DNA from: a bacterium
GTDB lineage: Bacteria > Patescibacteriota > Minisyncoccia > Phycocordibacterales > UBA5272
Direction: 5' to 3'
Assembly (NCBI GenBank): GCA_023267635.1
Contig: JAHFMX010000005.1
Coordinates: 1,989-65,988 of the forward strand
Length of the DNA stretch: 64,000 nucleotides
Below the pieces are notes generated by a model. That model saw only the letters and a program-made list of their open reading frames with translations. It was not told the DNA's origin and ran no database searches. The translations under genes were made by a program, and so were the position numbers. The stretch's first letter is position 1. Each line of letters opens with the position of its first letter. Shown here in pieces: positions 18,810-51,010 of this stretch.

Positions 18810-18810
18810 T

Positions 18811-23366: not shown

Positions 23367-24458
23367 TTAGCGATTAAGCGGCATAAGAAGATAGGTAAAA
23401 CTAATATCCTTATTTCCTCGTATAAACATTGGGCGATTTGCTGTACTAAACATACAGATAATAGTTCCACCTTCTATATGGGACAAAACATCTAAGAAAT
23501 ATCTGTTATTATATTTTACTTCAATATCGTCCCCTACTTTTTCTCCTGAGATTGTATGAGTTACTTGTCCTACTGCTTCATTTTTACTGTGAAATGTTAC
23601 CTTTCCTTCTGTAAAGACACATTCAACTTGAGAGTATTGTTCATTGAAGAATGTTGTGAGTGTTAATGTCTTTTGAAGCTCTTCTTTTGCTAAGGTGACG
23701 GTTGTAGTGAATTCTTTAGGGAACAGCTGTCTATAGTCAGGAAATTGACCAGTAACAGTATGTATAGCTAGAGTTAGGTTTGATGTACTGAAAGATAAAA
23801 TACTTTCATGTTGAGAAAGCGTAAACACTTCATCTTCTTCATTAAGGATTTGCAATATATCTGTTATATGTTTTTGCGGAATAAGAATCGAACATTCAAG
23901 ATCAGTTGTATTTGGTATTGATTTTTCAGCTAATCGATATGAATCTGTAGCTACAGTATAAATAAGATCATCTTTTGTATACAAATACACAGAAGCAATC
24001 TCTGGTTTAATGTCGGTAGTGGCTGCACAAAAAGAAACTTCTTTTAGGAGTGTATTTATATTTTCTTTTGAGAGAGTCCCTATTGAAGAACCTTGACTTG
24101 GAAGTGTTGGAAAGTCTTCATACGGTGTTGTTTTAATTTCAACAACACCTTTATCTGTTGTTATTGAAAAAACTCCTTCCTGAACCTCACAAATAAGAAC
24201 AGTATCTAGAGATTGAAATGTAGAAAGAATTCTTAAAAAAGCTTCTCCTTGTAAAATACAGGTTCCATTTACGAGACCTTTTACAGGAATACTTTTTTCA
24301 CAAAATAATTCAAGATTTGTTGCTCGTAATGTTAAAAGATGAGTATCTAACTCAAGATGAATATCCTGAAGATAGTTTTGTGACTGCTGTTTACTACGAG
24401 CACGTGACACTTGTTGAACAGCTTTTATAAATACCTCTCCTCTGCATTCGAATTTCAT
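23367..24458 (-). CDS. dnaN: DNA polymerase III beta sliding clamp
   Basis: MKFECRGEVFIKAVQQVSRA N-terminus typical of DnaN, about 363 aa three-domain length, position between dnaA/oriC and downstream genes. Confidence 0.8.
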   Translation of the reverse strand: MKFECRGEVFIKAVQQVSRARSKQQSQNYLQDIHLELDTHLLTLRATNLELFCEKSIPVKGLVNGTCILQGEAFLRILSTFQSLDTVLICEVQEGVFSITTDKGVVEIKTTPYEDFPTLPSQGSSIGTLSKENINTLLKEVSFCAATTDIKPEIASVYLYTKDDLIYTVATDSYRLAEKSIPNTTDLECSILIPQKHITDILQILNEEDEVFTLSQHESILSFSTSNLTLAIHTVTGQFPDYRQLFPKEFTTTVTLAKEELQKTLTLTTFFNEQYSQVECVFTEGKVTFHSKNEAVGQVTHTISGEKVGDDIEVKYNNRYFLDVLSHIEGGTIICMFSTANRPMFIRGNKDISFTYLLMPLNR

Positions 24459-26296: not shown

Positions 26297-26620
26297 ATGC
26301 TTCCAAAGACGAAGCGGGTAACGGCAACTGATTTCAAGGGTACAAAAACGCGGCTCGTTTATCGAGGTGCGTTTTTTGATCTTAGTACCGCCCCAACGGC
26401 TTCACCTGAAAGTATCACTAAATTTGCTTGTGTTATAGCGAAAAAGCGCATTAAACGAGCCGTCGACAGAAACAGAGCTAAAAGAAAAATCTATACGCAA
26501 CTCGCAGGCATACAAACAAAGGTCCCTATGCTGGTTTTTATATATCCCACTAAACACATACTCCAAGCACCTTCTTTTGCGATCAAAGAGGAAATAACTA
26601 AAGCATTTGCTACACTGTAA
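26297..26620 (+). CDS. rnpA: Ribonuclease P protein component
   Basis: Basic 107-aa protein with KRAVDRNRAKRKIY (RNR motif), follows rpmH. Confidence 0.8.
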   Translation: MLPKTKRVTATDFKGTKTRLVYRGAFFDLSTAPTASPESITKFACVIAKKRIKRAVDRNRAKRKIYTQLAGIQTKVPMLVFIYPTKHILQAPSFAIKEEITKAFATL

Positions 26621-27353
26621 CAACAAAACTATGTTCCACACTATTTTCTACGAACCAATTTATAACTTACTTGTTCTTGTTCTTACCTACGCCCCTCTTC
26701 ATGACATAGGAACAGCGATCGTTATTGTTACGCTTATTGTTAAGGTGGTGCTTCTTCCCCTTAATCTATCTGCATTACGAAGTCAGTACATCATGAAGCG
26801 CCTAGAAGGAGAAATGGCAGCTCTTAAGGAAGAACACAAAGCATCACCACAAGAAGCTTCAAAGAAAATGATGGAAGTGTATAAACGTGAAAAGATAAAC
26901 CCATTTGCAAGTCTTTTTACTGTTCTTATACAGATTCCAATCTTCTTCGCTCTTTACTTCGTCTTCTCGAAAGGCCTTTTTGCTGACCCAAACTCACTCT
27001 ATTCTTTCGTTAGTTTCCCAGAGACACTTCACACAAAAGCATTCGGACTATTTGATGTGATGGATAAAAATATTGTAATTGCAGTATTGGCTGGGCTTTC
27101 TTCATATGTTCTTGCGCGACGTCAAACAGCTTCAATGGTTGCTCCTAAAAAAGAAGGAAAAGATGAATCGTTCCAAGATCAATTTATGAAATCTATGAGA
27201 ATACAACTTCTCTATGTTCTTCCTGTTATTATTGGTTTCTCTGCAGCCGTTCTTCCTTCGGCGCTCGGACTCTATTGGTTTGTAAGTAATGTTATTGGGT
27301 ACGCACAAGACGTATACATAAAAAACAAGTTGGCTCACCTCCACACCATTTAG
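26607..27353 (+). CDS. yidC: Membrane protein insertase YidC (short form)
   Basis: GTAIVIVTLIVKVVLLPL TM1, amphipathic helix, multiple TMs, position after rnpA. Confidence 0.8.
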   Translation: MLHCNNKTMFHTIFYEPIYNLLVLVLTYAPLHDIGTAIVIVTLIVKVVLLPLNLSALRSQYIMKRLEGEMAALKEEHKASPQEASKKMMEVYKREKINPFASLFTVLIQIPIFFALYFVFSKGLFADPNSLYSFVSFPETLHTKAFGLFDVMDKNIVIAVLAGLSSYVLARRQTASMVAPKKEGKDESFQDQFMKSMRIQLLYVLPVIIGFSAAVLPSALGLYWFVSNVIGYAQDVYIKNKLAHLHTI

Positions 27354-27356
27354 TTT

Positions 27357-28385
27357 TTACAGTTGATTTAAACAGGCGGTCAGTTCACAAGCATAAGATT
27401 TTACAGCGCACATGTTGTATTGGCTGTCGCCCGGATTAATCGGACAAACCCATTTTGGAACACTCTGATTAAACCCCGTTTCTTGTTTGCAGTCAGCGCT
27501 TGGAGAATGAGGAACGGTACCGTTTGCACAACAGTTATACGACGCAAAGACCCCCGCCATTGTCGGAATGTTTGGGTATACCTGATTCGTCGCTGCGATT
27601 TTTCCTTTAAGCAATGAAACTCCGCGAGCTATATTTGTTTCAGGGTTAAGGATGGAAGCATCACAAGGTGTTTTTTGGTTTATTTGCATAAGTCCGCAAT
27701 CATAGGTACCATTTGGGTTTGTGTTTTGAGCAATTTCTCTAGCACTTGATTCTTTGCACATGAGAGCGATCACCATTTTATAGTCCACGCCAGCATTACT
27801 GGCTTCACGTTGTATGGTGGGTAAATATTTTTGGTAATTACATCCTGTAAGTACTGTGCAACGAGCACCCCCACAGACACCACCAGTTGATTTGAGTGAA
27901 GCTATAACAGTGCTTGTTGGTTCACAGGTTTTAGATGAGTTGTTGGACGAAGGAAAACTCCCCGTCGCCCCTCCTCCGCCCATGTCCCCTCCTCCCCCAC
28001 TCACAATCCCACCACCTTTTCCTGCTGCAGCTCGTAATCCATCTAACCCAACATTTCCAGAAAGTAGATCTTTGTTAAAGGTATAAAGAATAACAAACAA
28101 AGAAAGAACACCAAGCAATCCAAGTGTTACTCTCTTAATTTCATCATTAGACTTCCTCACCCCTGCTTCTGATGCCTGCATTCTATATACCCCAGCTCGT
28201 GCGTACATTACTCCTGCTGCAAGTACAGAGATCATAATAGCCAATGAATACAGAAAGCTTGTAGAAGAGAACAAAGAAACAGCTTGTCCTGTAGTAAACG
28301 TTGGAGCAATCCCCTCCTTTCCAAGAGATTGGAAGTATGAGGGCTCGAGGGAGGTGTAGTTTTTATTATTCGGATTCATCGGCAA
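27357..28385 (-). CDS. Fusion of VirB2-pilin-like double-TM module (Gly-rich tail) with family-1 lytic transglycosylase (SLT) domain; VirB1-like function
   Basis: N-module two hydrophobic helices separated by charged loop + GKGGGIVSGGGGDMGGGGATG; C-domain YKMVIALMCKESSAREIA...YDCGLMQINQ (catalytic E-S, GLMQ motif); first gene position of the T4SS-like operon (distal end). Confidence 0.7.
   Translation of the reverse strand: MPMNPNNKNYTSLEPSYFQSLGKEGIAPTFTTGQAVSLFSSTSFLYSLAIMISVLAAGVMYARAGVYRMQASEAGVRKSNDEIKRVTLGLLGVLSLFVILYTFNKDLLSGNVGLDGLRAAAGKGGGIVSGGGGDMGGGGATGSFPSSNNSSKTCEPTSTVIASLKSTGGVCGGARCTVLTGCNYQKYLPTIQREASNAGVDYKMVIALMCKESSAREIAQNTNPNGTYDCGLMQINQKTPCDASILNPETNIARGVSLLKGKIAATNQVYPNIPTMAGVFASYNCCANGTVPHSPSADCKQETGFNQSVPKWVCPINPGDSQYNMCAVKSYACELTACLNQL
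27960..28359. repeat. 400-bp perfect direct repeat, copy 1 (identical to 30140..30539)
   Basis: Base-by-base identical over 400 bp by visual alignment; covers 5' coding module of 27357..28385. Confidence 0.9.
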
Positions 28386-29655
28386 AAAGGTTTGTATTAA
28401 GAAGGAAAAGAGAGCCGTCTTGTCTTCGTATAAAACTAATAAGGTCAGATCCTGCGCTTGCTGTGAGGTGAGTCACATCAATCTGTCCGTAGGTTTCTGG
28501 AAAAGAATAGAGTGTATAGGTTTCTCCATTCTGTGCATTTACAATGGAAAGTGTATCGTCAAACATAAACCTTCCTTGATACCAGTCATCAGGCAACCCT
28601 TCAACGCTTTCTGGAATAGATTGAGGAATACCACAGACAAAGTATGGAGACACTGTTCCAACACACTTAGAAGCAAGGGTTTTTGTTGTGAAGGAAGCAA
28701 TCTTTCCAACGCTTACTCCAAAGGTTGCAAGCCCAGACTGAGACCACATGCTGTTAAGCATTGGACCATTAGATGAAGGAGTGCTTAGGAGACCTGTCTT
28801 GCCTCCTACGACTGAAGAAAATGAAGGAAGAGCAACCGTTGCCCCCTCCACATACGCAGACGCATGTGATGTTGCATAGAGCTGCTCGCCTCCGTAGGAA
28901 AGGGTCCATTCTGAAAAAGGAGAATCTGCCACACGCGCTGTACCTCGCAGTGAAAGTGAGTAGATAGTTGATCCGTTTGATCCAGGAACAACATAACTAA
29001 CCGTCGACAAATTTTTACTAACTGCAGTAGATGAAATATTTTGAGGTAGATAGGTTGTATCAATAAGTGGCTCAGGATCTCTCCCCTCTTGAACATTTGG
29101 GATAGAAGCCAGGATGCTTACAATAGTTTTCCTGTCGGCACCTAGAGAGCGCATAACAATACGATCACCTCCCGCCCATATGTATGCATCAAACACCCCT
29201 GGAATGGTTGTATTACTTATTTGATATGTTGTACCAGACTCCACCACATGACCGTATACGTACCCTGTTACTCGGTCAACAAACATAAGGACGGTGGTTG
29301 TGGCGCGAACTGTTTTTGTTGTTGAAATGGTTGTTGTCCCCACCGTTGAGGTAGACGTTACTTCTCGTAGTATGGGGCGACTCACGAAAACATTTCCTGT
29401 TGCAGGTGCGCCCCAAATACGATTGAAAGGAATCGCCGAAGCGGGAGTAATTTCAGTTTCTGTATTTGTGCCAGGCTCATCCCCTTGAAAGATAAAAGCA
29501 AAACGAGCAGGCAAATCACGAAGTGAAAAAGCACTTGTGGGTGTCTGTAGAGTTGGAGCTGATTCAGGTTTTGAAAAAAGAAAATACCAAACAATAACAC
29601 CAAAAGCAAACAGTGCGATAAGAGCAAATAAAATCTGAAGACGGCGATGTTCCAT
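28366..29655 (-). CDS. Bitopic membrane protein with large Thr/Ser-rich extracytoplasmic domain (T4SS-like locus)
   Basis: 429 aa; N-terminal TM LQILFALIALFAFGVIVWYFLF; no recognised domain. Confidence 0.5.
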   Translation of the reverse strand: MEHRRLQILFALIALFAFGVIVWYFLFSKPESAPTLQTPTSAFSLRDLPARFAFIFQGDEPGTNTETEITPASAIPFNRIWGAPATGNVFVSRPILREVTSTSTVGTTTISTTKTVRATTTVLMFVDRVTGYVYGHVVESGTTYQISNTTIPGVFDAYIWAGGDRIVMRSLGADRKTIVSILASIPNVQEGRDPEPLIDTTYLPQNISSTAVSKNLSTVSYVVPGSNGSTIYSLSLRGTARVADSPFSEWTLSYGGEQLYATSHASAYVEGATVALPSFSSVVGGKTGLLSTPSSNGPMLNSMWSQSGLATFGVSVGKIASFTTKTLASKCVGTVSPYFVCGIPQSIPESVEGLPDDWYQGRFMFDDTLSIVNAQNGETYTLYSFPETYGQIDVTHLTASAGSDLISFIRRQDGSLFLLNTNLFADESE

Positions 29656-29695
29656 GTAGTTTCAGTATAGCAAGTACTTCGCTTCTTTTTGTGAG

Positions 29696-30553
29696 TTATC
29701 TACCAGTAAAGGACGCATGAAAGTGACGTGCTGTAGATTTACCGCAACCAGACTCGGGTTCGTCCCAGAAAATGAATCCACTATACCCATATTTCACATT
29801 ACATGGTGGGCTGTTGGCAATAATTGATTTTGATTTTAGAAATGTGCCCAGTTGTTCGGTGTACTGTATATCTACGGCTTCTTTTCCTGGTCCATGGTTT
29901 GAGTTTGTGCTATGTCCAGGCTCTGATCCGCCAGTCACCATAAGCGAACAGTTGCATTCTGCTTTTAGTTTAAGCAACATATTGACGGTGGCTGGATTCA
30001 TGTTTCCAACATTCGTACAGCTTGTGTCTGAACCAACACAAGCAGGTTTGTTTATGGTGATTCCTTGAGCAGACAATGCGTTGCGATTTGCTTGCTCCGT
30101 TCCGTTTGTTGAGGGTGTTGGAACGGGTGTACCAAATCCCCCCGTCGCCCCTCCTCCGCCCATGTCCCCTCCTCCCCCACTCACAATCCCACCACCTTTT
30201 CCTGCTGCAGCTCGTAATCCATCTAACCCAACATTTCCAGAAAGTAGATCTTTGTTAAAGGTATAAAGAATAACAAACAAAGAAAGAACACCAAGCAATC
30301 CAAGTGTTACTCTCTTAATTTCATCATTAGACTTCCTCACCCCTGCTTCTGATGCCTGCATTCTATATACCCCAGCTCGTGCGTACATTACTCCTGCTGC
30401 AAGTACAGAGATCATAATAGCCAATGAATACAGAAAGCTTGTAGAAGAGAACAAAGAAACAGCTTGTCCTGTAGTAAACGTTGGAGCAATCCCCTCCTTT
30501 CCAAGAGATTGGAAGTATGAGGGCTCGAGGGAGGTGTAGGAAATCAGTGCCAT
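29696..30553 (-). CDS. Fusion of the same VirB2-pilin-like membrane module with peptidase M15 (VanY-like D-Ala-D-Ala carboxypeptidase / LAS metallopeptidase) domain
   Basis: N-terminal 133 aa identical to 27357..28385 product; C-domain SEPGHSTNSNHGPGKEAVDI (H..D zinc ligands) and ARHFHASF (second His). Confidence 0.65.
   Translation of the reverse strand: MALISYTSLEPSYFQSLGKEGIAPTFTTGQAVSLFSSTSFLYSLAIMISVLAAGVMYARAGVYRMQASEAGVRKSNDEIKRVTLGLLGVLSLFVILYTFNKDLLSGNVGLDGLRAAAGKGGGIVSGGGGDMGGGGATGGFGTPVPTPSTNGTEQANRNALSAQGITINKPACVGSDTSCTNVGNMNPATVNMLLKLKAECNCSLMVTGGSEPGHSTNSNHGPGKEAVDIQYTEQLGTFLKSKSIIANSPPCNVKYGYSGFIFWDEPESGCGKSTARHFHASFTGR
30140..30539. repeat. 400-bp perfect direct repeat, copy 2
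   Basis: Identical to 27960..28359; 2180 bp offset. Confidence 0.9.
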
Positions 30554-30558
30554 AGATA

Positions 30559-31533
30559 CTAATTGGGTCGCGTGTCGAAGATAACCTCAATCTCATTTGT
30601 TGCTTTCTGCAGTTTACGCTTCGCACTTTCTACCATCACAGAAAGAGTGCGGATCCCCACACTATTTTCTCTTGGACGAAGAGAAAGAAGTGTTTTTTCC
30701 ATAGGGGTAACAGGAAGACCATCTAAGTACCATGAATATGAAGCGGTATTTTCGAATTCATTGTTTGAAGAAAAATAAAATGGAACAAGAGAAAGTGTTA
30801 TATCTTTAGATGTTTCAAGTCTTCTCCAGAATGTTTTTGTAAGGTTTGTTCCGAGCACTTCGTCGTATGAGTACAAAAGTGGCATAACAGCATGAGGAGA
30901 AATTGAAGTTCTTTTTTCCGCCACACTTCCACGTGGGCTTCTCACAACAACTCGCACATCGTTGGAGTCGCTTAAATAATCGAGCGCAATAGTTGCAACA
31001 GATCTTCCCACGCCAGAAGCGTTTTCTAGAAACTCTCCGTTTAGATACCAGCTATATGCAAGACTTGAGGCTTGAATTCTGACACCGCCTTCACTTAATG
31101 AAGGTAATGCAGTAACACGAACAACGGCCCCCTCAGAAGGAAGAGATCTTCCTTGATAAAAGGGAGGAACAAAACTTTCTCGTGATTCATAGAGAAGTTC
31201 AACTGTCTGAGAGGAAACAATAAATGATCCACTAGCCCCACCCCCGTCTACAGTAATGACGGTATATGAAATAGGGATTTCTTGCCCAGAAGCGCCAGCG
31301 GTTACAGTTACTTTTTTAGCACCAAGGCCCGAAAGAAGTGTCGTTCCTCCGCTCTTCCAGGTTATCATCGCCCCATTAACATCAAAGGAGGCACTCGTAA
31401 GAGTAATGGTTGTTTCTTGATACGGTGCAGGATTTGTTGGGCTCATACTAACGCTCACATCAAGTGCTGCGAAAGCGTACATTGGAACAAAGAGAAGAGC
31501 GAAAGAGAGTAGCAGTCGTGTGGCTAGCGTCAT
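30559..31533 (-). CDS. Secreted protein of unknown function (T4SS-like locus)
   Basis: Signal peptide MTLATRLLLSFALLFVPMYAFAA; beta-rich 324 aa. Confidence 0.5.
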   Translation of the reverse strand: MTLATRLLLSFALLFVPMYAFAALDVSVSMSPTNPAPYQETTITLTSASFDVNGAMITWKSGGTTLLSGLGAKKVTVTAGASGQEIPISYTVITVDGGGASGSFIVSSQTVELLYESRESFVPPFYQGRSLPSEGAVVRVTALPSLSEGGVRIQASSLAYSWYLNGEFLENASGVGRSVATIALDYLSDSNDVRVVVRSPRGSVAEKRTSISPHAVMPLLYSYDEVLGTNLTKTFWRRLETSKDITLSLVPFYFSSNNEFENTASYSWYLDGLPVTPMEKTLLSLRPRENSVGIRTLSVMVESAKRKLQKATNEIEVIFDTRPN

Positions 31534-33347
31534 AGTACTTTTGATTGTGCCACTTCATCTTTCATGGCTTTAATCTGAAGAAGTTGAGACGGATCACTCG
31601 TGATGATCTGATCTTCCGTGTATGAAGCAACAACTTTTATCGCTACGTGCTTAAGTCCGGCAAAGAAGATTCCCTCCCCTACACCAGACTCAAGCAGGAG
31701 AAACTTCTCTTCGTCGGTGAGGTTAAATGTTTTTTGTACAAGGTCTATAGAAGAAGGTGATTGTTTAAGAAGGATTTGAATTGAGGAGTTTGTGATAATA
31801 GGAAGTCCGTATGGAGACTTAAGGAAGTCTCCAACGTCTTGTGTAATGGTTGCAAGTCCAAGGTAATACTTTCGTCCGCGCTTAGCGAGTCCGAAGAGGA
31901 ATGATGCAGTGTCATCGTTTTTCATCATGATCCAAGCTTCATCCACCACTAAAAGTCTTTTTCGAATATCTTTTCGTACCGCATTCCAAATGTAGTGAGT
32001 AATAATATACATCGCAACAGGTTTAAGCTCATCCTCCATGTCTCGGATAGAGAAACACACAAGCTTTTTATTGATATCAACGTTTGATGGCTGATTAATA
32101 AACCCAGACCACGTTCCTTTTGTGTATTTAGAAAGTCGCGCAAGAAGATCGTCTGACCCCCCTATTCCTTGAAGAACAGTTTCAAAGTCAGAAAGAAGTG
32201 GTGGTTCAAGTTTTGTGAAATCAACATCACCATTAATATCTTTAAGCGCGTATGTTTCGGTGATTGCTTGGTCTATGATCGCATCTTCTTCTGGGGTAAG
32301 TCCTCCAAGCATCACACGGAAAAGTCCAACCAAGTTAACAATGTTTGATCGAAGTACTTCAGACGGCGACTCATCTTCTGTTGGATGTGGTAAATCAAAA
32401 GGGTTAATGTGGTGGTCACTTGTGAGAGAAATATCAAAATATCTTCCCCCTACTGATTCAGCGAGGTATTCGTATTCTCGTTCAGGGTCAATAATAATCA
32501 CCTCAGTATCAAACATAAGCGTACGAAGAATTTCAAGTTTTGTTGTATAACTTTTACCAGAACCAGATTTTGCAAAAACAATCGAATTGTAGTTCTCAAG
32601 AGAAAAACGATCAAAGAGGATGAGTGATCCATTGTGACGATTGAGCCCGTAGAGAATTCCTTTGTCTGACGAAAGGTCAAACGACACGAATGGGAAAAAC
32701 GATGAGAGTGGTGATGTGTTCAGTTTGTTTTTTATCTGCAACTGGTCTTGTCCCAAAGGAAGAGTAGAGAGGAAACCAACATCTTGCTGGAACAAGGCTG
32801 GTTTTACATATACCAATCGACTTTCTAGTATATTTTTTATCTCATTTTCAACTTTATCAACTTCCGCTTCTGTTGACCCATAGATAGAAATATACAGAGA
32901 CACTTCAAACATTTTTTCTTGCGCTTGAGTAAGTCCGTCACGCAGGTCTTCGAGATCTTTGTATGCTACATCAAGTGTTGGGTCACGCACGAGCCCCTTT
33001 TCTTCACGTGTCATAATCTGACTTTCAACCTCAGCAACTTTTCTTTGGAATTTTTTCATCACATCCCCTGTGTCGAGTGGAGTTACGTGAATAGCAACAT
33101 CAAATACTTTGTCTAGGTTAATAATTGGGCTTAACCAGTTATCCGTAAGGAATCGAGGGTATGAGATAACGAAATAAGAGCGCACAATATTGGTACCGAG
33201 ATTAAGATTCTTTGGGCCAACACCCAAAGCAGAAGGCGCAATAATATCCTTTAGTTGCATTTCTGCCACCTTGTAGACTTGCTCAGGCAAGATTGGGCTT
33301 ACTGGCGAAGCTCCCTGTTTTTTATTTATAAAATCAAATATTCCCAT
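31530..33347 (-). CDS. VirB4/TrbE-family type IV secretion ATPase, C-terminal (NTPase) portion
   Basis: Walker A FAKSGSGKSYTT, Walker B LLVVDEAWIMM (DEAW typical of VirB4), 605 aa. Confidence 0.75.
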   Translation of the reverse strand: MGIFDFINKKQGASPVSPILPEQVYKVAEMQLKDIIAPSALGVGPKNLNLGTNIVRSYFVISYPRFLTDNWLSPIINLDKVFDVAIHVTPLDTGDVMKKFQRKVAEVESQIMTREEKGLVRDPTLDVAYKDLEDLRDGLTQAQEKMFEVSLYISIYGSTEAEVDKVENEIKNILESRLVYVKPALFQQDVGFLSTLPLGQDQLQIKNKLNTSPLSSFFPFVSFDLSSDKGILYGLNRHNGSLILFDRFSLENYNSIVFAKSGSGKSYTTKLEILRTLMFDTEVIIIDPEREYEYLAESVGGRYFDISLTSDHHINPFDLPHPTEDESPSEVLRSNIVNLVGLFRVMLGGLTPEEDAIIDQAITETYALKDINGDVDFTKLEPPLLSDFETVLQGIGGSDDLLARLSKYTKGTWSGFINQPSNVDINKKLVCFSIRDMEDELKPVAMYIITHYIWNAVRKDIRKRLLVVDEAWIMMKNDDTASFLFGLAKRGRKYYLGLATITQDVGDFLKSPYGLPIITNSSIQILLKQSPSSIDLVQKTFNLTDEEKFLLLESGVGEGIFFAGLKHVAIKVVASYTEDQIITSDPSQLLQIKAMKDEVAQSKVL

Positions 33348-33351
33348 AGTG

Positions 33352-33993
33352 TTAGTTGTTGTTTACCTTAGGCGCTTCTCGGTCTTGTTCCCCTGGATTA
33401 AAAAGTTTATAGAAGAGCTCAACGACTTCTTCTGTTCCAAGCTTTTGTGAGCGTAATCCAAAGCGATTAAGTCCTTGCATAACCGTTGCTACACGTTGTT
33501 CAAGCTGAATTCGAGCTGCATCAAAAGACCCCTGCTCTCCGCCAGTAGAAGAGTTAGCTAAACCAAATGATAAGAATTTGTTCGCTTGATTTTGATTTTG
33601 TGTTTGAGCAGGCAAGTACGGAATCACAATGAAGAAATGTTTTGTCATAATGTTTGTTTCTTCTGTAAACTTTGTGATGAAGCCCATGTACTCATGAATT
33701 TGAATCTTTAAAAGATCCTCCTTTACCTCCCCTGATCGCTGCTGCAGGAGATCCATGTATGGTTTGATATTGAGTCTTCTTGATTGGATGAAAAATTGAA
33801 TTGGGAAATCAAGTGAATTAAGAAGGTTTTGAAACTGAAGAAGAATCGCCTGCTGCTCATCTTCACTTTTGAGGGACAAGTTGAGTGATGAAGTAATAAG
33901 CACGGCACGGAGTTCGCCGTTTTTAAGTACAACAACACCATCACGCACGCGTTCGATCGGTACAAATTGTTGTGTTGCTATTCCAGAAGCCAT
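33352..33993 (-). CDS. VirB4-family N-terminal domain encoded as separate ORF (split VirB4)
   Basis: FVPIERVRDGVVVLKNGELRAVLITS resembles VirB4 N-terminus; stop TAA then ATG of NTPase ORF 4 nt later in a different frame; combined length about 818 aa equals a normal VirB4. Confidence 0.55.
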   Translation of the reverse strand: MASGIATQQFVPIERVRDGVVVLKNGELRAVLITSSLNLSLKSEDEQQAILLQFQNLLNSLDFPIQFFIQSRRLNIKPYMDLLQQRSGEVKEDLLKIQIHEYMGFITKFTEETNIMTKHFFIVIPYLPAQTQNQNQANKFLSFGLANSSTGGEQGSFDAARIQLEQRVATVMQGLNRFGLRSQKLGTEEVVELFYKLFNPGEQDREAPKVNNN

Positions 33994-34029
33994 ATCTTGA
34001 AGTATACAGCATAGAAACAGGACTGAAGG

Positions 34030-34452
34030 CTATTCCTGTGAGTTACGATCAAGAACATCAAGACCAAGAGATACTTCATGAAGTCTATCTTTGTTTACTT
34101 TTGAGACAGTTATTTCTTTTTCTGCATCAGCAACTACTTTTTCTATATTAGAAGTGCTCTCAGTTTGTTCCTTTGGCTGCTTCCAGGTATAAATTTTACT
34201 CCCTGTGTAGTAAGCGAAAGCGCTCTCAAGTAAATCTCCAAAGGGTCTATTGTTAATTTTTACAAAAGCAAGAGAAAGAAATAATCCAGAAACGACCAGA
34301 ATAAGAACAACGGCGATGATTTTTATTGAGATAAACGTCCAAATAATGAAGGAGAATCCGCCCGCACCTAAAATATACCCAAATTGTTTGAGGGTAAGAG
34401 GTCCGACAACCTTGTCTTCCATGTCGATAAATTGAGGGACTCGGAATTGCAT
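34030..34452 (-). CDS. VirB3-like small membrane protein
   Basis: 140 aa, hydrophobic hairpin (FGYILGAGGFSFIIWTFISIKIIAVVLILVVSGLFLSLAF), immediately upstream of VirB4 as in canonical loci. Confidence 0.5.
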   Translation of the reverse strand: MQFRVPQFIDMEDKVVGPLTLKQFGYILGAGGFSFIIWTFISIKIIAVVLILVVSGLFLSLAFVKINNRPFGDLLESAFAYYTGSKIYTWKQPKEQTESTSNIEKVVADAEKEITVSKVNKDRLHEVSLGLDVLDRNSQE

Positions 34453-34480
34453 AGGTTAAAGTATATCACGCACTGATTAG

Positions 34481-35257
34481 CTATTCTGAGGTTTCTCGGT
34501 ACGGGTCAATATTGTATTTGGTCGGAGCTTTACTGTATGAGGCGGTCTGAGCTTCAGCTTCTACCGCTTTGTCGTCACCCGCATGAGGCATAAATTCCTG
34601 AAGAGCGATGTTTGAGTCCAGTGCCCTATCGTCCTTTGTTTCTATCCCAGAGATTTGTTCTTGGATTTTTTTAAGTCTTTCTGAAACCTCCTCATCATCT
34701 GGAATAGTGTCTAAAATCTGTAGTTGTTCCAAGAGTTGGGAGCGAGATCCTACTACAGCCGTTGTTTTTTTAGCGGGCGCAGGCGCAGGTGTTACAGGCG
34801 CAGGAGCTGTTGGCTGAGCTTGTTGGTTTTGAGTTGAGGCAGGTACTGGTTCGCGCTTGGTGGTGTCGAGAATTTCTTTTCGTAATTCGTCAGGTGACCT
34901 CCCCTCTTGAAACGTAAGCGTTACCATATCTTTGGGTGATTTACCCAAGATACTAATACGAGCTTTTTCTAGAATAGTTTTATCCAGGTCTGCAGCAAGT
35001 TTGTAAGCCTCTTCTTCAGAAAGAGCTAAAATATCCACGATAGCCCGCACAACATCTTTTGGTTGTAAGGCTCCAATCAGAATGAATGAAATGATATTCT
35101 CAAGCGCAATGTAAGAACTCACTGGTATTTTATATAGTTTACCTAAAATTGCGGTTACGTTGTTTACTTCGTCTCCATGAATAAGCTCCTGAATATCTTC
35201 TGGAGATTGATCGAATAACTCGTCTTGATTTGTTGCGATATAAGATACAGTTTTCAT
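34481..35257 (-). CDS. Hypothetical soluble protein with Ala/Pro-rich linker (T4SS-like locus)
   Basis: 258 aa, no TM, PAPVTPAPAPAKK low-complexity, acidic C-terminus. Confidence 0.45.
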   Translation of the reverse strand: MKTVSYIATNQDELFDQSPEDIQELIHGDEVNNVTAILGKLYKIPVSSYIALENIISFILIGALQPKDVVRAIVDILALSEEEAYKLAADLDKTILEKARISILGKSPKDMVTLTFQEGRSPDELRKEILDTTKREPVPASTQNQQAQPTAPAPVTPAPAPAKKTTAVVGSRSQLLEQLQILDTIPDDEEVSERLKKIQEQISGIETKDDRALDSNIALQEFMPHAGDDKAVEAEAQTASYSKAPTKYNIDPYRETSE

Positions 35258-35259
35258 AC

Positions 35260-37605
35260 TTATACGGTCTCAGCTTCTGGGGTGTTTTTAGGTGTCACAG
35301 TTGTTGCGTTACTAGTATCAAATTTTTTCGAACGAACTCCCGCTCTAAAACTTGTACTATGAATATCGTCAACATTAACAGGAGATTCTTCACTCGCCTC
35401 GCCTTCTTTCGGTACAAGTCCAGCCTTGTCTAAGTCCACTGAAGGGCCTTTTGACGTGGTCGGATTTGGCCGAGCACTCCCCGCTTGGTTTTTAAGTATT
35501 GTTTGCATGTCCTCCGACTGTGATTCCAAGTACTCCTGCTTTTTGTCAGGGTCTGCGGTGTTGTTATATCTATCAATTATCTTTTGTTTACCATTTTCAA
35601 GACTTTCTTTTATAATCTCTGCATCACTTCGCCCTTCTTTGCCGCTGAGCCCGAAGACTTTTAGCGTACCACGCTGAGCCCTTGAACCAATTGTGTTAGT
35701 CATCTGGTTGAGATATCTATCACGAACACCTGCGTCTTTAATGTATGAAGCTTTTGCCTGAGTCGCGGTTTTTCTCTCCTGAAAATTTTTGTCATATGTT
35801 TTCGTTGACCCCGCCCCCATTCCCATTCCGGCGGATGCCATGCCGCGGTTAACCATTCCTATATTTTTTGCATCAAACGTGCTTTGAGCTAATGAATTTG
35901 TAAGGGAAAACAACCCACGCCCAGTTCTGGAATCTTGTTTATTTTTCATCCAATCACTATCGCGCATACGAGCTGCGGCCATTCCAACAGTGCCTCGTGC
36001 AAGTAGTCCAGCCCCACCTGTTGCTACACCAAGCCCAAACCCTCCTACTTTACCCATGAAATTTGTCGCCATTTCTCCTGCTGTTCCAGCGGCAGCTTTG
36101 GTTACTTTGAGCATTATCATTAGCATAATTGTCATCATAAGGAGATTGAAGAAGACTTTTACACTATCCCCACCGTTGGCAAGTGGTCCTGTTTGGAATA
36201 CGTCCATAAATCTAAGAGTAAGCGCAAGCATAAGCATAAACACGGGAGCAACAATGAGTTGTTCAAAAAACATTTTACGCATTTTTACGGCAACGTCCCC
36301 TAATTTTGGCACTACCGCATCAACTAAAAGGAGTGGAGAGGCAACAATAAGGAAAGCAAGTACGGCGGACCTCATAACAAGTAACCACGTACACATAAAG
36401 AGCACAAAGGCTGCACATAAAGCAAAAGCAACAGCAGCAAGAGCTCCAGGTGTGGTATTAATTTGTCCAACAAACCCAGACCCTGTTTTTACATTAAATC
36501 CGCTTTCTGCGGTTACTGTGGTGGCGCTTACAAAAAGATCAGTTAAACCAAGTTTACTTACAATAAGTGATCCCGCAGTGTTGCCGCCAGACGTTGTTAC
36601 AGCGCTTCCAAAACTGCTACCCAACGCTTCACTCCCCACAGCGCTTGAATAAATATTTAAAGAAACAATATTTGAAACATCAACAAGGGCTCTTGTGATT
36701 GGATATGAAAAGTTTACAAAGAGAGCAAAGATTACAAGCCACCCAATGTATTTACCAAAGGTGTCTTCACGTCCAATAATATACATGAATCCAAGGTAGA
36801 GTCCCGCAAACACTACAACAAGAGAAACTATTTGGCGAATAATTACCCATACAGAGTATATAGATGCTGTGGGTGACCATTTAGCAAAGTCCAGAATACT
36901 TATTTGAATCGCATAATTAAGCATGTTGGCACTAAGCCATGCAAGAAACCCAGCCATTTGAAGGAAAGTATTCTTAATAAGCCAAGAAAAACCTTCATCA
37001 ATACAGGCAGAAACTGTAAAGTTATTCCAACGGCAACCCCCACTAATTGTTTTACTTCCTGGGTTAGCAGATTCTTTGGATGCGACGGCGTTTGCTTGAG
37101 CCTCTGCGCTCAGTGCTTTTCCTGTGGTTATTGCACGGATGCGTTCTTGGCTAAGAGCCTCTGCCATTAACTCTTGTCTAAATTTACGAATAAAATCATC
37201 CGCTTGAGGTCTTTTGAGTATAGGGTTTGAGCTTTGTTGATCAACAAGCGATCGACTTGTTGCTACAAGAGCATCTCCATAGAGTTCTGTGGGGGTGCGG
37301 GTAGATTTTGCTGTCAGTGTTGTTTCAAAGACACCTTTAGCCACCCTAACCATTGCAATTTCTGCTGCATTTGTTTGCACATATTCTTTGTACTCAGTAC
37401 TATTTTTGTCTCCATGGGTTGAACCAAATAATTTCATTTCATTATTCAGTGCAAGAATCTTTTCATCAATAATAGGACTAGCGTGCTGAAGTATTTGTTC
37501 CACAGTAACAGTATTTTGTGCAAAAGCTTTTTCTGGATGGGTAAATCCACCAATTGTACCAATGAGTATTATCGCGATAAAAGCGTAGACACCAAGTCGT
37601 TTCAT
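35260..37605 (-). CDS. VirB6/TrbL-like polytopic membrane protein (large form)
   Basis: Signal peptide then at least 6-8 TM helices in central region, hydrophilic Gly/Met-rich C-terminal extension; 781 aa. Confidence 0.55.
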   Translation of the reverse strand: MKRLGVYAFIAIILIGTIGGFTHPEKAFAQNTVTVEQILQHASPIIDEKILALNNEMKLFGSTHGDKNSTEYKEYVQTNAAEIAMVRVAKGVFETTLTAKSTRTPTELYGDALVATSRSLVDQQSSNPILKRPQADDFIRKFRQELMAEALSQERIRAITTGKALSAEAQANAVASKESANPGSKTISGGCRWNNFTVSACIDEGFSWLIKNTFLQMAGFLAWLSANMLNYAIQISILDFAKWSPTASIYSVWVIIRQIVSLVVVFAGLYLGFMYIIGREDTFGKYIGWLVIFALFVNFSYPITRALVDVSNIVSLNIYSSAVGSEALGSSFGSAVTTSGGNTAGSLIVSKLGLTDLFVSATTVTAESGFNVKTGSGFVGQINTTPGALAAVAFALCAAFVLFMCTWLLVMRSAVLAFLIVASPLLLVDAVVPKLGDVAVKMRKMFFEQLIVAPVFMLMLALTLRFMDVFQTGPLANGGDSVKVFFNLLMMTIMLMIMLKVTKAAAGTAGEMATNFMGKVGGFGLGVATGGAGLLARGTVGMAAARMRDSDWMKNKQDSRTGRGLFSLTNSLAQSTFDAKNIGMVNRGMASAGMGMGAGSTKTYDKNFQERKTATQAKASYIKDAGVRDRYLNQMTNTIGSRAQRGTLKVFGLSGKEGRSDAEIIKESLENGKQKIIDRYNNTADPDKKQEYLESQSEDMQTILKNQAGSARPNPTTSKGPSVDLDKAGLVPKEGEASEESPVNVDDIHSTSFRAGVRSKKFDTSNATTVTPKNTPEAETV

Positions 37606-37712
37606 ACTGTGAAGTGTACCACGCGAAGGAGTGATGGAGGGCGTTGATATCCATATTTTCTAAACAAAAATAACCTCAAAAATGAGGTTATTTTTTGTAT
37701 TCTGGTATTTAT

Positions 37713-39416
37713 TTAGAATGATCCACCTCCACCCGATTGAGTGTTTTGCTGTGAGTAACTTTGTCCTATCGACACACATTCGTCAGCAAGGGTTGTAAGC
37801 TGTGGGATAGCTGAAGCAATTTCTGCGTCTAGGTTGTCTTTAAATGGTATAAATTCTGATTCCCGCATAGCTGCCATAGATAAGCTAGGAATGTCTTGTC
37901 GTTGGTAATTATTAAACAAGCTCAGTATTTCTTCACTTGATTGTGATGAGGCTATAGAAATAAGCGTGTCATTGATAAGAGTTCGGGCGGTTGTTATAGA
38001 ATTAAGAGTCTTAACTGAAGGCGCTTTTCTGAAAGCAAGGTCTATGATTTTATTCCCTGTAAAACTAAGTGCATTGATGATTCGTTGGTCATTTTTTATA
38101 GTTTGGTTGTTCGGGTTATCTTTAAGTATTTGCTCGTAACATGCCTGCACAGGTCGTACACGGTCTTCATATGCAGATAATGCTGATATGAATTTCCCCT
38201 CAACGCTTTCGAGTGAGCTTAAAGAAGCAAGATGTGCCTTAAGTGGTTCGCTCACGCTGGTTGTTGTTTCTCTTTGCCGTACAGGGTCAGTAAGATTTTT
38301 GGTTTGCACCGCGGATTCTTGCTTCGGTGCTGCCTTAGAAGGATTTGATAATGAACGAGCAGAAGAAACTAAAGAGAGAATTGAAGCAATACTTTTACCA
38401 GCCCCAGGACCAAAAGCTTCCATAAGTTTCTTGAGACTTCCGTTGACCGATTCTTGGAAGGCATTATTTAACACACTTCCAACATTGGTAATAGATTCTA
38501 CTCTACAAGGAATATTAGAGACACCTGATTCTTCGGCTACTGCTGGTTGATCACACTTCGTGGCACTCGCGATACCCCCTCCGTTTCTAAGGTCGTTTTC
38601 CGCATTTTTTTCTTTTACTTCTTTATTTTTTGCTATTGCTAGTTGTGTTTGAATACTTCTGTTGTACTCATTGTCCCCAAAACTTACCGCCAAAAGGCTG
38701 TCCATTCCTGCTACATCGGGACGCTGCTTACTGACCGCTGTAAGTCTTTGTCCAAGTTGAATATTCACACTAGGATTTCCTACACAGAGTGAGTTAAAAA
38801 GGTCCTGCTTTCTGTTTTGAAATGCTTCTAAGTCGTACGTTCCATCACTTTTCATGACATCATTCTTCGCAACATTAGAAAGCGAGGCGTCTTTACAAAG
38901 ATTATTCTGAACAATGTTTGGTATTGATGAATTACTGAGTGAACTTAGGGTAGACTTGAGATCAGATGCCCCTCTATACGTATTTATTACACTCCCTAAA
39001 ATACTTGAACTGTATGTTCCATTTTGTTGAGAAATATCTCCAATGTTAACCCTTACAGAATTTAATCCTTTATTTTGAACCCATTGTTCAGGATTTTGAA
39101 TAAGAAGAGAGTTGCCCCCCAACGAACCTGTTATCAAATTAATGGTATTGTTTTGTTGCTGGATTTGAGTAGCGACAATCATGGCATTTGCCAAAGGATC
39201 AAGAACGCTTGACTGAAGATAGGTGTAATAGGTGTTAACTTGGTTTGCTACGTTAGCTGCAGTGTTTATAACATCCTTTGCATACTGAGGTATTTGGGTG
39301 GCGTACTGAGCAGGGTCAAATACTATATCCCCCACCCCAAGAATTGCATAGGAGGGCTGAGTGCTAGAAAAAAAGATACTAAAGAAAAAAGCTGAGGCAA
39401 TAAAAAAGTGTTTCAT
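37713..39416 (-). CDS. Secreted protein with TrbJ/VirB5-like N-terminal region and long C-terminal extension
   Basis: Signal peptide; GVGDIVFDPAQYATQIPQYAKDVINTAANVANQVNTYYTYLQSS resembles TrbJ N-terminus (VFDPxNLxQNxL...Q-rich helix); located next to VirB6-like as in trbJ-trbL. Confidence 0.45.
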   Translation of the reverse strand: MKHFFIASAFFFSIFFSSTQPSYAILGVGDIVFDPAQYATQIPQYAKDVINTAANVANQVNTYYTYLQSSVLDPLANAMIVATQIQQQNNTINLITGSLGGNSLLIQNPEQWVQNKGLNSVRVNIGDISQQNGTYSSSILGSVINTYRGASDLKSTLSSLSNSSIPNIVQNNLCKDASLSNVAKNDVMKSDGTYDLEAFQNRKQDLFNSLCVGNPSVNIQLGQRLTAVSKQRPDVAGMDSLLAVSFGDNEYNRSIQTQLAIAKNKEVKEKNAENDLRNGGGIASATKCDQPAVAEESGVSNIPCRVESITNVGSVLNNAFQESVNGSLKKLMEAFGPGAGKSIASILSLVSSARSLSNPSKAAPKQESAVQTKNLTDPVRQRETTTSVSEPLKAHLASLSSLESVEGKFISALSAYEDRVRPVQACYEQILKDNPNNQTIKNDQRIINALSFTGNKIIDLAFRKAPSVKTLNSITTARTLINDTLISIASSQSSEEILSLFNNYQRQDIPSLSMAAMRESEFIPFKDNLDAEIASAIPQLTTLADECVSIGQSYSQQNTQSGGGGSF

Positions 39417-39419
39417 AGA

Positions 39420-40400
39420 TTAATGGGTGACTCCAGTATATCCCACAACATAGATATACCCAGATTCATGTGAGGAAAAGGTTATGTTCTTAAGATTAAA
39501 ATAATCAGCAAGCATAGGAAATATTCGAAGAGCCTCCAGTATTGTTTCGTGATATTTTTCAATTGCAGCAGTAGCACGCATCGCATCAGTATTCACTACA
39601 GAGAGATTTGAGAGCACGTTATTATATTCTGACACCCTGTTTAAAACAATGAGGTGGTATGGAATTGCAGATTTTGGAACCTTAACTTCAAGAAGTTTTT
39701 GGATGGACGCTTCCACTCTTTTCGAATTGGTAACCAAAGGAACAAGATTAGCTTCATCTGCTGTCTGTAGATACTTTGTGACACTCATAAGCTCGTCCGT
39801 AATTGTTTTCTCAGTAATGAGGTTTTTTAAAATGAGGGCTACATCATTTCCGTATTTTTTAATTGTTATTTTGCTGTCGGCAACAGAGGATATATCCAAA
39901 GAGGTGTATATTTTTGGTGCAATTTTTTTGCTTTCTTCAGCAAGTAGTTGGTTAACAACTTCTTGCTTGCTTGATTCATCTGCTATGCCCCCTTGTTGTA
40001 GGGCGGTAGAAGCAAGGAATGCGTTTTTTGTGAATGATGCAGTTACGTTGTTTGGATCGTTTAGAATAGCTAGTACTTTTGGGTCTGTTTCAAATTTTAT
40101 TCCAGACTCCTCTTTTGAGAGAGAGAGCGAACTTGCAATTATTTCCCCCCAACTTATCGCACCATCATTATCAGTGTCTGTTGCAAGGTTTTCTGGTTGA
40201 GAAATAGTCCCTAGATTTAAGGGCTCATAGCGTCTCACTTGTTTTTCTATACCAAACCAAGAAGCTGGAAGGAGTGATGTTCCAATCGTTAAGATAAAAA
40301 CAATGCCCAATAACAACAGAGGTGTGTTGCTTTTTTCTTGTGAAGTGAGATTTTTAGATGTGGGGATGTTCATATTCATGAGTATACATCTAAAAATCAT
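39420..40400 (-). CDS. Bitopic membrane protein with EF-hand-like DxDxDG loop; possible VirB8-like component
   Basis: Single N-terminal TM, DTDNDGAISWGE Ca-binding-like loop, about 280-aa periplasmic part; first gene of the operon. Confidence 0.35.
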   Translation of the reverse strand: MIFRCILMNMNIPTSKNLTSQEKSNTPLLLLGIVFILTIGTSLLPASWFGIEKQVRRYEPLNLGTISQPENLATDTDNDGAISWGEIIASSLSLSKEESGIKFETDPKVLAILNDPNNVTASFTKNAFLASTALQQGGIADESSKQEVVNQLLAEESKKIAPKIYTSLDISSVADSKITIKKYGNDVALILKNLITEKTITDELMSVTKYLQTADEANLVPLVTNSKRVEASIQKLLEVKVPKSAIPYHLIVLNRVSEYNNVLSNLSVVNTDAMRATAAIEKYHETILEALRIFPMLADYFNLKNITFSSHESGYIYVVGYTGVTH

Positions 40401-40463: not shown

Positions 40464-41222
40464 TTAAAGTATTGAAATAGTAAGCCAAGTTGCAAGTGGA
40501 ACATCTTCCGCTCGAGTCTTCTCGTTTACATTCTGTTTTAGAAAGACTTCTTGCCAATTTGTTGTAGGGATTTTTTCTTTCAAATTAGATAACAAGTACT
40601 TTCTTTTGTGAGCAAAGCCAGCTTTTACAATGTTAAAAAACATTTGTTCGTGGTATTGGTTTTTAAAGTTTTTACGAGAGATGTTTTTAATCTGGAGGAC
40701 CGCTGAATCAACTGTTGGAATAGGATTAAAACTTCCTCTAGATACTTTATATACAAGTTTTGGTTCTCCGTAGGCTTTCACTGAAAGAGAAAGGATGGAT
40801 TCTTTTCCTTCTTTTGCACACACACGCACAGCAACTTCCTTTTGCACAAGCACCACCATAGTAGTTGGCTGATTAACATGAGAAAGATATCGCTCAAGAA
40901 TTGCTCCTGTTATATAGTACGGAATATTTGCAATGAGCTTGTAACCAGGAGCTTCTGGGTTATGAGTAAGCGCGTCCCCTTCGATAAGGGTAAAGTTTTT
41001 ATTCGCGCAGAACTTTTCAGTAAGCAACGGAATAAGATCGCTGTCTTTTTCAAGAGCGGTAACGTGGGCTCCTGTTTCAATGAGGGATTGTGTGAGGAAT
41101 CCCTTCCCTGGACCAATTTCAAGAATTGAGTCTGATGGAACAACTTCTCCTGCCTCAACGATCGCAATACGAGCTGGGATTGAGGTGAGAAAGTTTTGAC
41201 CAAGCGCCTTTTTCGGTTTCAT
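40464..41222 (-). CDS. rsmA: 16S rRNA (adenine1518/1519-N6)-dimethyltransferase
   Basis: MKPKKALGQNFLTSIP...ILEIGPGKGFLT SAM motif. Confidence 0.85.
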   Translation of the reverse strand: MKPKKALGQNFLTSIPARIAIVEAGEVVPSDSILEIGPGKGFLTQSLIETGAHVTALEKDSDLIPLLTEKFCANKNFTLIEGDALTHNPEAPGYKLIANIPYYITGAILERYLSHVNQPTTMVVLVQKEVAVRVCAKEGKESILSLSVKAYGEPKLVYKVSRGSFNPIPTVDSAVLQIKNISRKNFKNQYHEQMFFNIVKAGFAHKRKYLLSNLKEKIPTTNWQEVFLKQNVNEKTRAEDVPLATWLTISIL

Positions 41223-50886: not shown

Positions 50887-51010
50887 ATTGATTAACTATA
50901 AGATATATTGTATCACATATTTGCTCATAATGCAAGCCCTCCCCCACTGCGTCCATTTATCCCCAATACTATTGTGCGACATTGCTCGGTATCTGCTATA
51001 TACTCATATA

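Follow-up and report, generated by a model that had tools for sequence, protein, structure and literature searches.

Type IV secretion systems (T4SSs) have been surveyed across 3,035 Patescibacteria genomes (Quinonero-Coronel et al. 2025; PMC12102498). In that survey, Patescibacteria VirB4 proteins were monophyletic and nested in MPF_FATA, and the repertoire in the candidate phyla radiation (CPR) comprised PrgI/VirB3, VirB6, VirB2-like pilins, and VirB1 (the last near virB4 especially in Paceibacteria). TrsD was abundant beside virB4 (2,272 homologues), separate TrsD genes being the rule in CPR, relaxases were near-absent, and the T4SS was often located near dnaA, dnaN, rnpA, ksgA, and rpmH. 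Transposon sequencing (Tn-seq) in Southlakia epibionticum has identified the T4SS cluster (SEML1_0006–0019) and pilins as essential for epibiotic growth (Wang et al. 2023; PMC10633639), and a 2025 FEMS review, which speculates on a host conduit made up of T4SS and pilus, reports that a Southlakia comEC deletion, abolishing competence, is tolerated (PMC12857230). Here, we describe a gene cluster at positions 27357–40400 of a 64,000-nucleotide stretch of contig JAHFMX010000005.1 (the whole 64-kb stretch is called 'the window' hereafter). The cluster very likely represents a chromosomal, origin-proximal T4SS of a Paceibacteria/Nomurabacteria-type CPR bacterium, belonging to the Patescibacteria lineage and derived from MPF_FATA with loss of the parts that process DNA.

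The cluster is filled exactly by eleven co-directional open reading frames (ORFs) on the reverse strand, named g1–g11 in transcription order (Table 1). A first-pass annotation, made from the sequence of the window alone, had described these genes as tightly packed or overlapping and as a reduced T4SS-like operon of ultra-small episymbiotic bacteria. The ORF listing agrees with the first statement (successive genes from g1 to g11 are separated by 3, 107, 2, 28, 36, 4, -4, 5, 40, and -20 nt), the 107-nt gap between g2 and g3 being the sole exception. The second is borne out by the match of g7 to a VirB4 profile and by the 80 best relatives of g7, all of which are from CPR.

When a single genome of each species was scanned, 512 loci were found to encode a relative of g7. 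The best 80 of these (71–99% identity) were picked by VirB4 similarity, a choice that inflates the conservation of VirB4 relative to that of the other genes. The 80 loci are all from metagenome-assembled genomes labelled Nomurabacteria, Paceibacterota, Parcubacteria, or generic CPR. Wherever the contig was long enough, tblastn and ORF-level BLAST recovered the order rsmA–g1…g10–(g11)–yidC–rnpA–dnaA, and the comparison of synteny across Patescibacteria that the first-pass annotation had proposed thus returned a recurrent g1–g10 order beside yidC–rnpA–dnaA. BLAST had missed g1, g2, and g4 in distant loci, but hidden Markov models (HMMs) built from orthologues found all three there, each in its expected place; g11 was seen less often (in 28 loci with tblastn). 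Genes g1–g10 thus make up a single conserved cassette and are not cargo particular to one lineage. Because up to 80 related loci have the same families in the same order, the case for real genes is independent of ORF length.

The motor of the putative apparatus is encoded by g6 and g7. The g7 product matches the NCBIfam model NF045971 ('VirB4-like conjugal transfer ATPase, CD1110 family') with 373.6 bits (E = 2e-111; model cut-off 325 bits) over model positions 183–733; its matches to the TraC-F-type and VirB4_CagE models of NCBIfam are weaker. It comprises the central and C-terminal ATPase domains of VirB4, and both Walker A (KSGSGKSY) and Walker B (LLVVDEAW), read from the translation, are intact. 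In Pfam, g7 matches P-loop_TraG (best) and AAA_10; the former name denotes the TraG of conjugative transposons of Bacteroides, which is of VirB4 type, and not the coupling protein. The possibility that the ATPase belongs to a different P-loop family (FtsK/TraG), raised in the first-pass annotation, is answered by a score that exceeds the cut-off for CD1110-family VirB4. With PrgJ of plasmid pCF10, g7 gives a phmmer E of 4e-40, and the closest plasmid VirB4s (30–36% identity) are those of monoderms (Streptomyces, Bacillales, and Clostridium). The g6 product matches positions 1–162 of the same CD1110 model (E = 6.7e-8), as well as VirB4_plasma (2.6e-12) and TrsD (2.7e-6) in NCBIfam, and g6 and g7 are therefore collinear with one full VirB4. 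On these profile matches, g7 is assigned to the monoderm CD1110/MPF_FATA type of VirB4 ATPase and g6 as a separately encoded, TrsD-like VirB4 N-terminal domain. The VirB3-like label given earlier to g5 likewise holds: with one strong transmembrane (TM) segment and a match to Pfam PrgI (E = 1.8e-9, 38.5 bits, cut-off 27), g5 is assigned as the VirB3 equivalent of monoderm T4SSs (PrgI family), and it is present in 77 of the 80 loci.

Consistent with the first-pass annotation, VirD4, VirB11, VirB9/10, and a relaxase were looked for in the 64-kb window (phmmer and Pfam) and none was found. Searches by phmmer with PcfC and PcfG of pCF10 gave no match in the window, and Pfam scans of its large ORFs returned housekeeping genes only, plus one PilB-like ATPase. 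The same lack of a relaxase and a type IV coupling protein (T4CP) in the window would be expected of an uptake machine for DNA or nucleic acid, that is, a T4SS operating in reverse (like Helicobacter ComB and archaeal Ced) to feed a nucleotide auxotroph. There are weak partial matches of g7 to CedB (E = 2.2e-9) and CedD, and a 2026 preprint proposes host RNA uptake by a Patescibacteria-type parasite and images tubules, possibly T4SS pili. However, the CedB match spans only ~70 residues of the ATPase core, components specific to ComB or Ced were not found, and the Southlakia comEC deletion ends competence, not viability, while the T4SS is still essential, so that ComEC-route DNA uptake is not the essential role of that T4SS. 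We consider uptake unlikely as an account of the locus and retain that of a host-directed T4SS.

Two genes of the cassette, g9 and g11, had been annotated as VirB1-like hydrolases, and what had been overlooked is a VirB2-like pilin module common to both. A 406-nt direct repeat, whose two copies differ at 2 positions (99.5% identity), is common to both genes and encodes an identical N-terminal module of ~135 amino acids (aa) with two hydrophobic helices. Searched in full with HMMER, 1.84 billion representatives yielded 63 homologues of this module, of which 16 match Pfam T4SS_pilin (PF18895; best E = 4.7e-10), matches to TrbC/VirB2 being occasional and weak; 4 of 27 g9 orthologues also match T4SS_pilin. 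An AlphaFold2 model of g9 (from a 46-sequence alignment; mean predicted local distance difference test [pLDDT] score of 81) places residues 34–65 and 69–99 in a hairpin at pLDDT ~90 or more, followed by a Gly-rich, disordered linker (residues 112–142) and a compact alpha/beta domain (residues 145–285) at pLDDT >90. The module of g9 and g11 is accordingly designated here a VirB2-like pilin hairpin. In the public annotation, g9 (P0146, 239 aa) begins 46 codons downstream of the ORF start and thereby lacks part of the module, which would then escape annotation pipelines; orthologues keep the longer N-terminus (Y-x-x-LEP…).

The enzymatic domains differ. In g11, residues 191–287 match Pfam SLT (E = 1.4e-9, 37.9 bits, cut-off 21.3), the catalytic Glu-Ser motif is read as 'CKESSA', and a transglycosylase match is the sole addition from the PHROG search; the protein also matches the pilin-module HMM (1.5e-44). 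Its C-terminal domain is assigned as an SLT lytic transglycosylase, so for g11 the VirB1-like description stands. For g9 it probably does not, the C-terminal domain looking Hedgehog/DD-peptidase-like and not like a transglycosylase. The invariant residues of this domain are E211, H214, H220, D228, H277, and H279, and its profile matches only 17 hedgehog N-domains among PDB sequences (E = 0.13–0.8), aligned on the zinc-ligand stretch 'TEpGH..sHg.g.aVD'. Since the hedgehog N-domain has the same fold and zinc site as DD-/LD-peptidases (LAS enzymes), we read the domain, with moderate confidence, as a LAS-like peptidoglycan peptidase, i.e. a Hedgehog/DD-peptidase-like zinc hydrolase.

The 64-kb window contains no free-standing pilin gene. 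Downstream of VirB4, mostly right after g8, 57 loci have an ORF of 176–777 aa that includes the pilin module, and the positional equivalents in distant loci exceed the T4SS_pilin cut-off and bear SLT, NlpC/P60, YkuD, or Amidase_5 domains. Fusion of pilin and hydrolase is the rule at the position 3' of g8. In seven distant Paceibacteria loci (L048, L050, L053, L058, L067, L074, and L077), the module is located mid-protein in products of 376–777 aa encoded downstream of g8, with N-terminal extensions (including TIG/Ig-like domains) and C-terminal SLT, NlpC/P60, YkuD, or Amidase_5; these look like a modular 'pilin plus wall enzyme' family. In 15 other genomes with both paralogues, the two modules are 73–98% identical within a genome as compared to ~44% between genomes, which points to concerted evolution, probably through gene conversion. 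Neither the fusion nor its concerted evolution is mentioned in the main text of the survey, the Tn-seq study, or the review (PMC12102498, PMC10633639, and PMC12857230).

It could be argued that g9 and g11 play no part in secretion and are common autolysins, held in the membrane by a two-helix anchor that merely resembles a pilin and serving growth of the cell's own wall or division. Gram-positive VirB1-like hydrolases also bear plain TM anchors, an M23/LysM peptidase is encoded nearby (46333–47310), and the window's own g9 and g11 score below T4SS_pilin significance. Set against this are the location of the pilin-module ORF downstream of VirB4 in 57 loci, the scores of the positional equivalents above the T4SS_pilin cut-off in company with four kinds of wall enzyme, and the near-identity of paralogous modules within a genome (73–100%), which speaks for a specific interaction common to both proteins and against a generic anchor. 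We regard the autolysin explanation as quite improbable, and take the modules as probable parts of the secretion apparatus. A further idea, which we put forward only tentatively and think rather doubtful, is that of an enzyme-bearing filament, in which the VirB2-like pilin would serve as an assembly module for hydrolases (SLT, LAS-like, NlpC/P60, YkuD, and Amidase_5) and not as a free subunit; gene conversion would retain the identity required for co-assembly in one T4SS stalk or pilus, which would drill through the host's wall or the cell's own.

The relative rates of evolution and the genomic setting bear on whether the cluster is mobile. Median identities among the nearer half of the loci are 89% (g7), 72% (g6), 65% (g5), and 27–48% (g1, g2, g3, g4, g8, g9, g10, and g11). 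In the distant half, the median is 72% for VirB4 versus 56% for DnaA, and VirB4 is the more conserved of the two in 30 of 46 loci, a contrast biased upward by the selection of loci on VirB4. The G+C content of the operon (0.39–0.44) is the same as that of the remainder of the window. A mating-pair-formation module of an integrated conjugative element (ICE), or the remnant of a degenerate plasmid, might be suspected from the CD1110-type VirB4, PrgI, and TrsD, a set characteristic of ICEs and conjugative plasmids in Gram-positive bacteria, and from a tyrosine recombinase encoded at 50855–51970. Yet the recombinase is 10 kb away with housekeeping genes in between, a relaxase and a T4CP were not found in the window, composition matches the rest of the window, VirB4 is as conserved as DnaA or more (in VirB4-selected loci), and the same genes are located between rsmA and yidC–rnpA–dnaA in dozens of species; we judge this reading very improbable. 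That the operon is decaying, its 'split VirB4' a frameshift pseudogene, as g6 and g7 in different frames 4 nt apart might suggest, has next to no probability, because g6 and g7 are separate ORFs in 79 of the 79 loci that hold both, with variable spacing (1–14 nt in most) and all three relative frames (34, 29, and 16 loci), Walker A and B are intact in g7, and separate TrsD genes are the CPR rule (2,272 homologues; PMC12102498); the split that the first-pass annotation had noticed is an arrangement of two genes, not a broken one.

The large polytopic protein g3 had been called VirB6/TrbL-like, and support for this is weak. Topology and position favour it: a signal or anchor is followed by an external domain of ~230 aa with invariant Cys191 and Cys201, 5–6 TM helices (residues 251–502), and a long hydrophilic C-terminal tail, and the position upstream of PrgI–VirB4 is that of prgH in pCF10. 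Profile evidence falls short, the match to TrbL being found in one distant orthologue (L048:5054-7837) over the TM core and below threshold (24.5 bits, cut-off 25.9). A Pfam domain was found in none of 120 listed g3 homologues (of 180 found), and hhalign with PrgH gave E = 0.04 and a probability of 1.3%, with TM helices alone aligned and a single-sequence template making this a weak test. We regard g3 as a plausible VirB6-like channel subunit with an 'extended VirB6' layout. Profile searches of PDB sequences with g1, g2, g3, and g4 returned no meaningful match.

Of the remaining proteins, g4, g8, g10, and the C-terminal extension of g2 had been proposed as candidate novel components or effectors. 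The conservation and synteny of these accessory proteins give them the look of structural parts and not of variable effectors. The g1 product has a single N-terminal TM helix (residues 28–46) and an external domain of ~230 aa. The EF-hand-like loop noted earlier is conserved, the calcium-loop-like motif DxDxDGxxxWxE (residues 75–86) being kept in most of 32 orthologues. The VirB8-like label is not upheld by sequence or profile comparisons: g1 has no match in Pfam, NCBIfam, PHROG, or PDB sequences, and in hhalign comparisons with PrgL and PrgD the TM helix alone aligns (single-sequence templates, again a weak test). HMM matches to g1 occur at the equivalent position in 48 loci. The annotated ATG (MIFRCILMNMN…) lies 63 nt from the rsmA stop, and the true start may be Met10, which is near-invariant in the orthologue alignment.

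For g2, the TrbJ/VirB5-like label found no significant support. DUF4141 is matched by one or two homologues, over the N-terminus only (for P0012, 33 bits with a cut-off of 30, residues 9–62, covering the signal peptide and a 'VFDP' motif), and a literature search on DUF4141 yielded no functional information. An AlphaFold2 model has a mean pLDDT of 58 and is poor over residues 17–374, with three long helices at pLDDT 80–95 in residues 378–560; Foldseek gave no significant match, the best PDB hits (E = 0.18) being generic helical bundles and TrwJ/VirB5 ranking 46th (E = 0.81). Only 25 homologues are detectable among 5.8 billion sequences, and median identity is 27% where VirB4 has 89% (nearer half of the loci). 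Cysteines 174, 211, 288, 304, 426, and 547 are nevertheless invariant. The N-terminal 'VFDP' motif is located past the signal peptide.

The g4 product is probably cytoplasmic, as it has no convincing TM helix; it comprises a helical N-terminal domain and, after a linker rich in Pro, Ala, and Gln, a C-terminal part in which the motif Y-x-x-DPY-x-E is invariant. It has no significant family match (Pfam, NCBIfam, or PHROG) or PDB match, and g4 HMM matches lie between g3 and g5 in 66 loci. Weak matches of g8 to BiPBP_C (Pfam) and to the Ig-like Hoc protein (3shs; profile E = 0.003) suggest that it is probably a conserved extracellular component of tandem Ig-like domains; it is present in 78 of the 80 loci. 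The external domain of g10 has invariant Cys331 and Cys341, a PDDWYQG motif, and weak profile matches to TolB (E = 0.005), and is possibly a TolB-like beta-propeller; g10 is present in 56–57 loci.

The 107-nt gap between g2 and g3 contains two candidate signals. The first is a hairpin with a perfect 13-bp stem and a T-run, and a comparable hairpin with a U-run occurs in the g2–g3 spacer of about a dozen related loci; it is probably a terminator or attenuator that parts g1–g2 from g3–g11. The second is the motif TGGTACACT, variants of which (TGATACACT or TGGTACACT, i.e. TGRTACACT) are found shortly before g3 in many related loci. With 2 copies of TGGTACACT in the window, the motif is not above chance, and the case for it is one of conservation across loci; the second copy (55463–55471) lies 12 nt upstream of the ORF at 54864–55451. 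TGRTACACT is possibly a -10-like promoter element or a translation signal for g3–g11. Together, the terminator-like hairpin and the recurrent motif before g3 suggest two transcription units, g1–g2 and g3–g11. A scan with a generic promoter consensus gave 35 matches versus 34 in shuffled sequence.

From these assignments we envisage the following apparatus. The g5, g6, and g7 proteins, together with polytopic, VirB6-like g3, would form the membrane translocon and its motor. Through their common pilin module, g9 and g11 would be anchored at or in the machine, where the zinc peptidase-like and lytic transglycosylase domains could open the peptidoglycan of the cell or of its host for the apparatus. 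The exported or bitopic, fast-evolving g1, g2, g8, and g10 would make up a wall-spanning, surface-exposed part for host contact, and g1–g2 would probably be transcribed apart from g3–g11, given the terminator-like hairpin between g2 and g3. The whole would act as a conduit or attachment device for exchange of macromolecules with a host cell, and not in conjugation. A function in host interaction is inferred by analogy with the essential Southlakia T4SS.

Several points weigh against this account. The analogy in function is with Saccharimonadia, a different class. The placement of g7 in the Patescibacteria clade uses identity as a proxy (best 80 relatives all CPR, plasmids at most 36%). T4SS_pilin significance is reached by homologues of g9 and g11 only, the VirB6 assignment of g3 is below threshold in the TrbL and PrgH comparisons, and no VirB8-like component was identified. 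Roles for g1, g2, g4, g8, and g10 are drawn from topology, position, and evolutionary rate only. Finally, the absence of a coupling protein and a relaxase covers 64 kb only, and VirD4 homologues are encoded elsewhere in many CPR genomes (PMC12102498).

Table 1. Genes of the T4SS cluster, sequence features within it, and flanking genes (positions are those of the window).
Feature	Position	Strand	Description
g1	39420..40400	-	326 aa, bitopic
g2	37713..39416	-	567 aa, Sec signal, Cys-rich, all-helical, secreted
g3	35260..37605	-	781 aa, polytopic, candidate VirB6-like
g4	34481..35257	-	258 aa, predicted cytoplasmic
g5	34030..34452	-	140 aa, PrgI/VirB3 family
g6	33352..33993	-	213 aa, TrsD-like VirB4 N-domain protein
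g7	31530..33347	-	605 aa, VirB4 ATPase
g8	30559..31533	-	324 aa, Sec signal, beta-rich; start overlaps VirB4 (g7) stop by 4 nt
g9	29696..30553	-	285 aa, pilin-like module + Hedgehog/DD-peptidase-like domain
g10	28366..29655	-	429 aa, N-terminal TM anchor + beta-rich external domain
g11	27357..28385	-	342 aa, pilin-like module + SLT; start overlaps g10 by 20 nt
Repeat copy 1	27954..28359	-	encodes pilin-like module of g11
Repeat copy 2	30134..30539	-	encodes pilin-like module of g9
Hairpin	37666..37695	-	perfect 13-bp stem + T-run, 17 nt past g2 stop
TGGTACACT motif	37613..37621	-	7 nt upstream of g3 start
yidC	26607–27353	opposite to operon	beyond g11 3' end
rnpA	26297–26620	opposite to operon	beyond g11 3' end
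dnaA	24715–26052		past rnpA
dnaN	23367–24458		past dnaA
rsmA/ksgA	40464–41222		upstream of g1
UvrD/PcrA helicase	41717–43669		upstream of g1

Other ORFs in the window deserve a brief record. The PilB-like protein is a T2SSE-family ATPase (type IV pilus assembly) of 601 aa with an MshEN N-domain, encoded at 15629–17434 (+), adjoining ruvB and ruvC (17817–19305) and ~10 kb from the T4SS operon. The M23 peptidase encoded at 46333–47310 (+), 6 kb upstream of the operon, is a wall hydrolase of LysM–LysM–Peptidase_M23 architecture; some CPR VirB1-like proteins bear M23 and LysM domains (PMC12102498). Pfam gave no match for the ORFs at 43980–46226 (-; 748 aa), 11823–13637 (-; 604 aa), and 43685–43975 (-; 96 aa). 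The 748-aa product is rich in Lys, Glu, and Pro, and the related loci, whose fetched stretches end around uvrD, yielded no homologue of it. Two antisense ORFs, at 35990–36652 (+; 220 aa) within g3 and 39649–40200 (+; 183 aa) within g1, most likely encode no protein and are shadows of the genes opposite.

The locus adds a Paceibacteria example with ten fully conserved families and an eleventh, g11, present in part of the loci. Five of the conserved families (g1, g2, g4, g8, and g10) are without annotation anywhere, and these, along with a pilin-like module that is physically coupled to wall hydrolases and evolves in concert, are targets for structural and depletion work. The fusion provides a testable idea on how such an apparatus crosses cell walls and leaves the general published picture unchanged.

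Among classical systems, the Trs system of staphylococcal plasmids pGO1 and pSK41 (an MPF_FATA subclass with TrsC, TrsD, TrsE, and TrsG) is the sole subclass with a separate TrsD beside VirB4 (TrsE), and it lacks a VirB6 homologue and a pilin (PMC12102498). It shares with the present locus the VirB3-like protein (TrsC) and a hydrolase (TrsG), and g6 matches the NCBIfam TrsD model; unlike the locus, it resides on plasmids and serves conjugation, for which it has a relaxase and a T4CP. The Prg/Pcf system of pCF10 of Enterococcus faecalis is collinear (prgH [VirB6], prgI [VirB3], prgJ [VirB4], and prgK [hydrolase]) but has a fused, full-length VirB4, and its T4CP PcfC, relaxase PcfG, VirB8-like PrgL and PrgD, and LPXTG adhesins have no detectable counterpart at the locus. 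With Gram-negative VirB2/TrbC and VirB1, the locus has in common a two-helix hydrophobic hairpin of pilin size (g9 and g11) and an SLT domain (g11); pilin and hydrolase are separate proteins there and are joined in one polypeptide by a Gly-rich linker here. The closest likeness is to the Patescibacteria T4SSs, in which are found the same monoderm-type VirB4 with separate TrsD, PrgI/VirB3, VirB2-like pilin domains, and cell-wall hydrolases encoded past virB4, along with a polytopic protein (VirB6-like; at the locus, the candidate g3), in a chromosomal cluster without relaxase or T4CP beside dnaA, dnaN, rnpA, and ksgA. The locus departs from them in that it has no free-standing pilin genes or pilin array, its pilin modules occurring only as the N-termini of hydrolases and being homogenised within the genome, and in the unannotated families g1, g2, g4, g8, and g10. 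Because it matches the published description point by point, the locus is a further example of the chromosomal, non-conjugative T4SS of CPR bacteria and not a new system.

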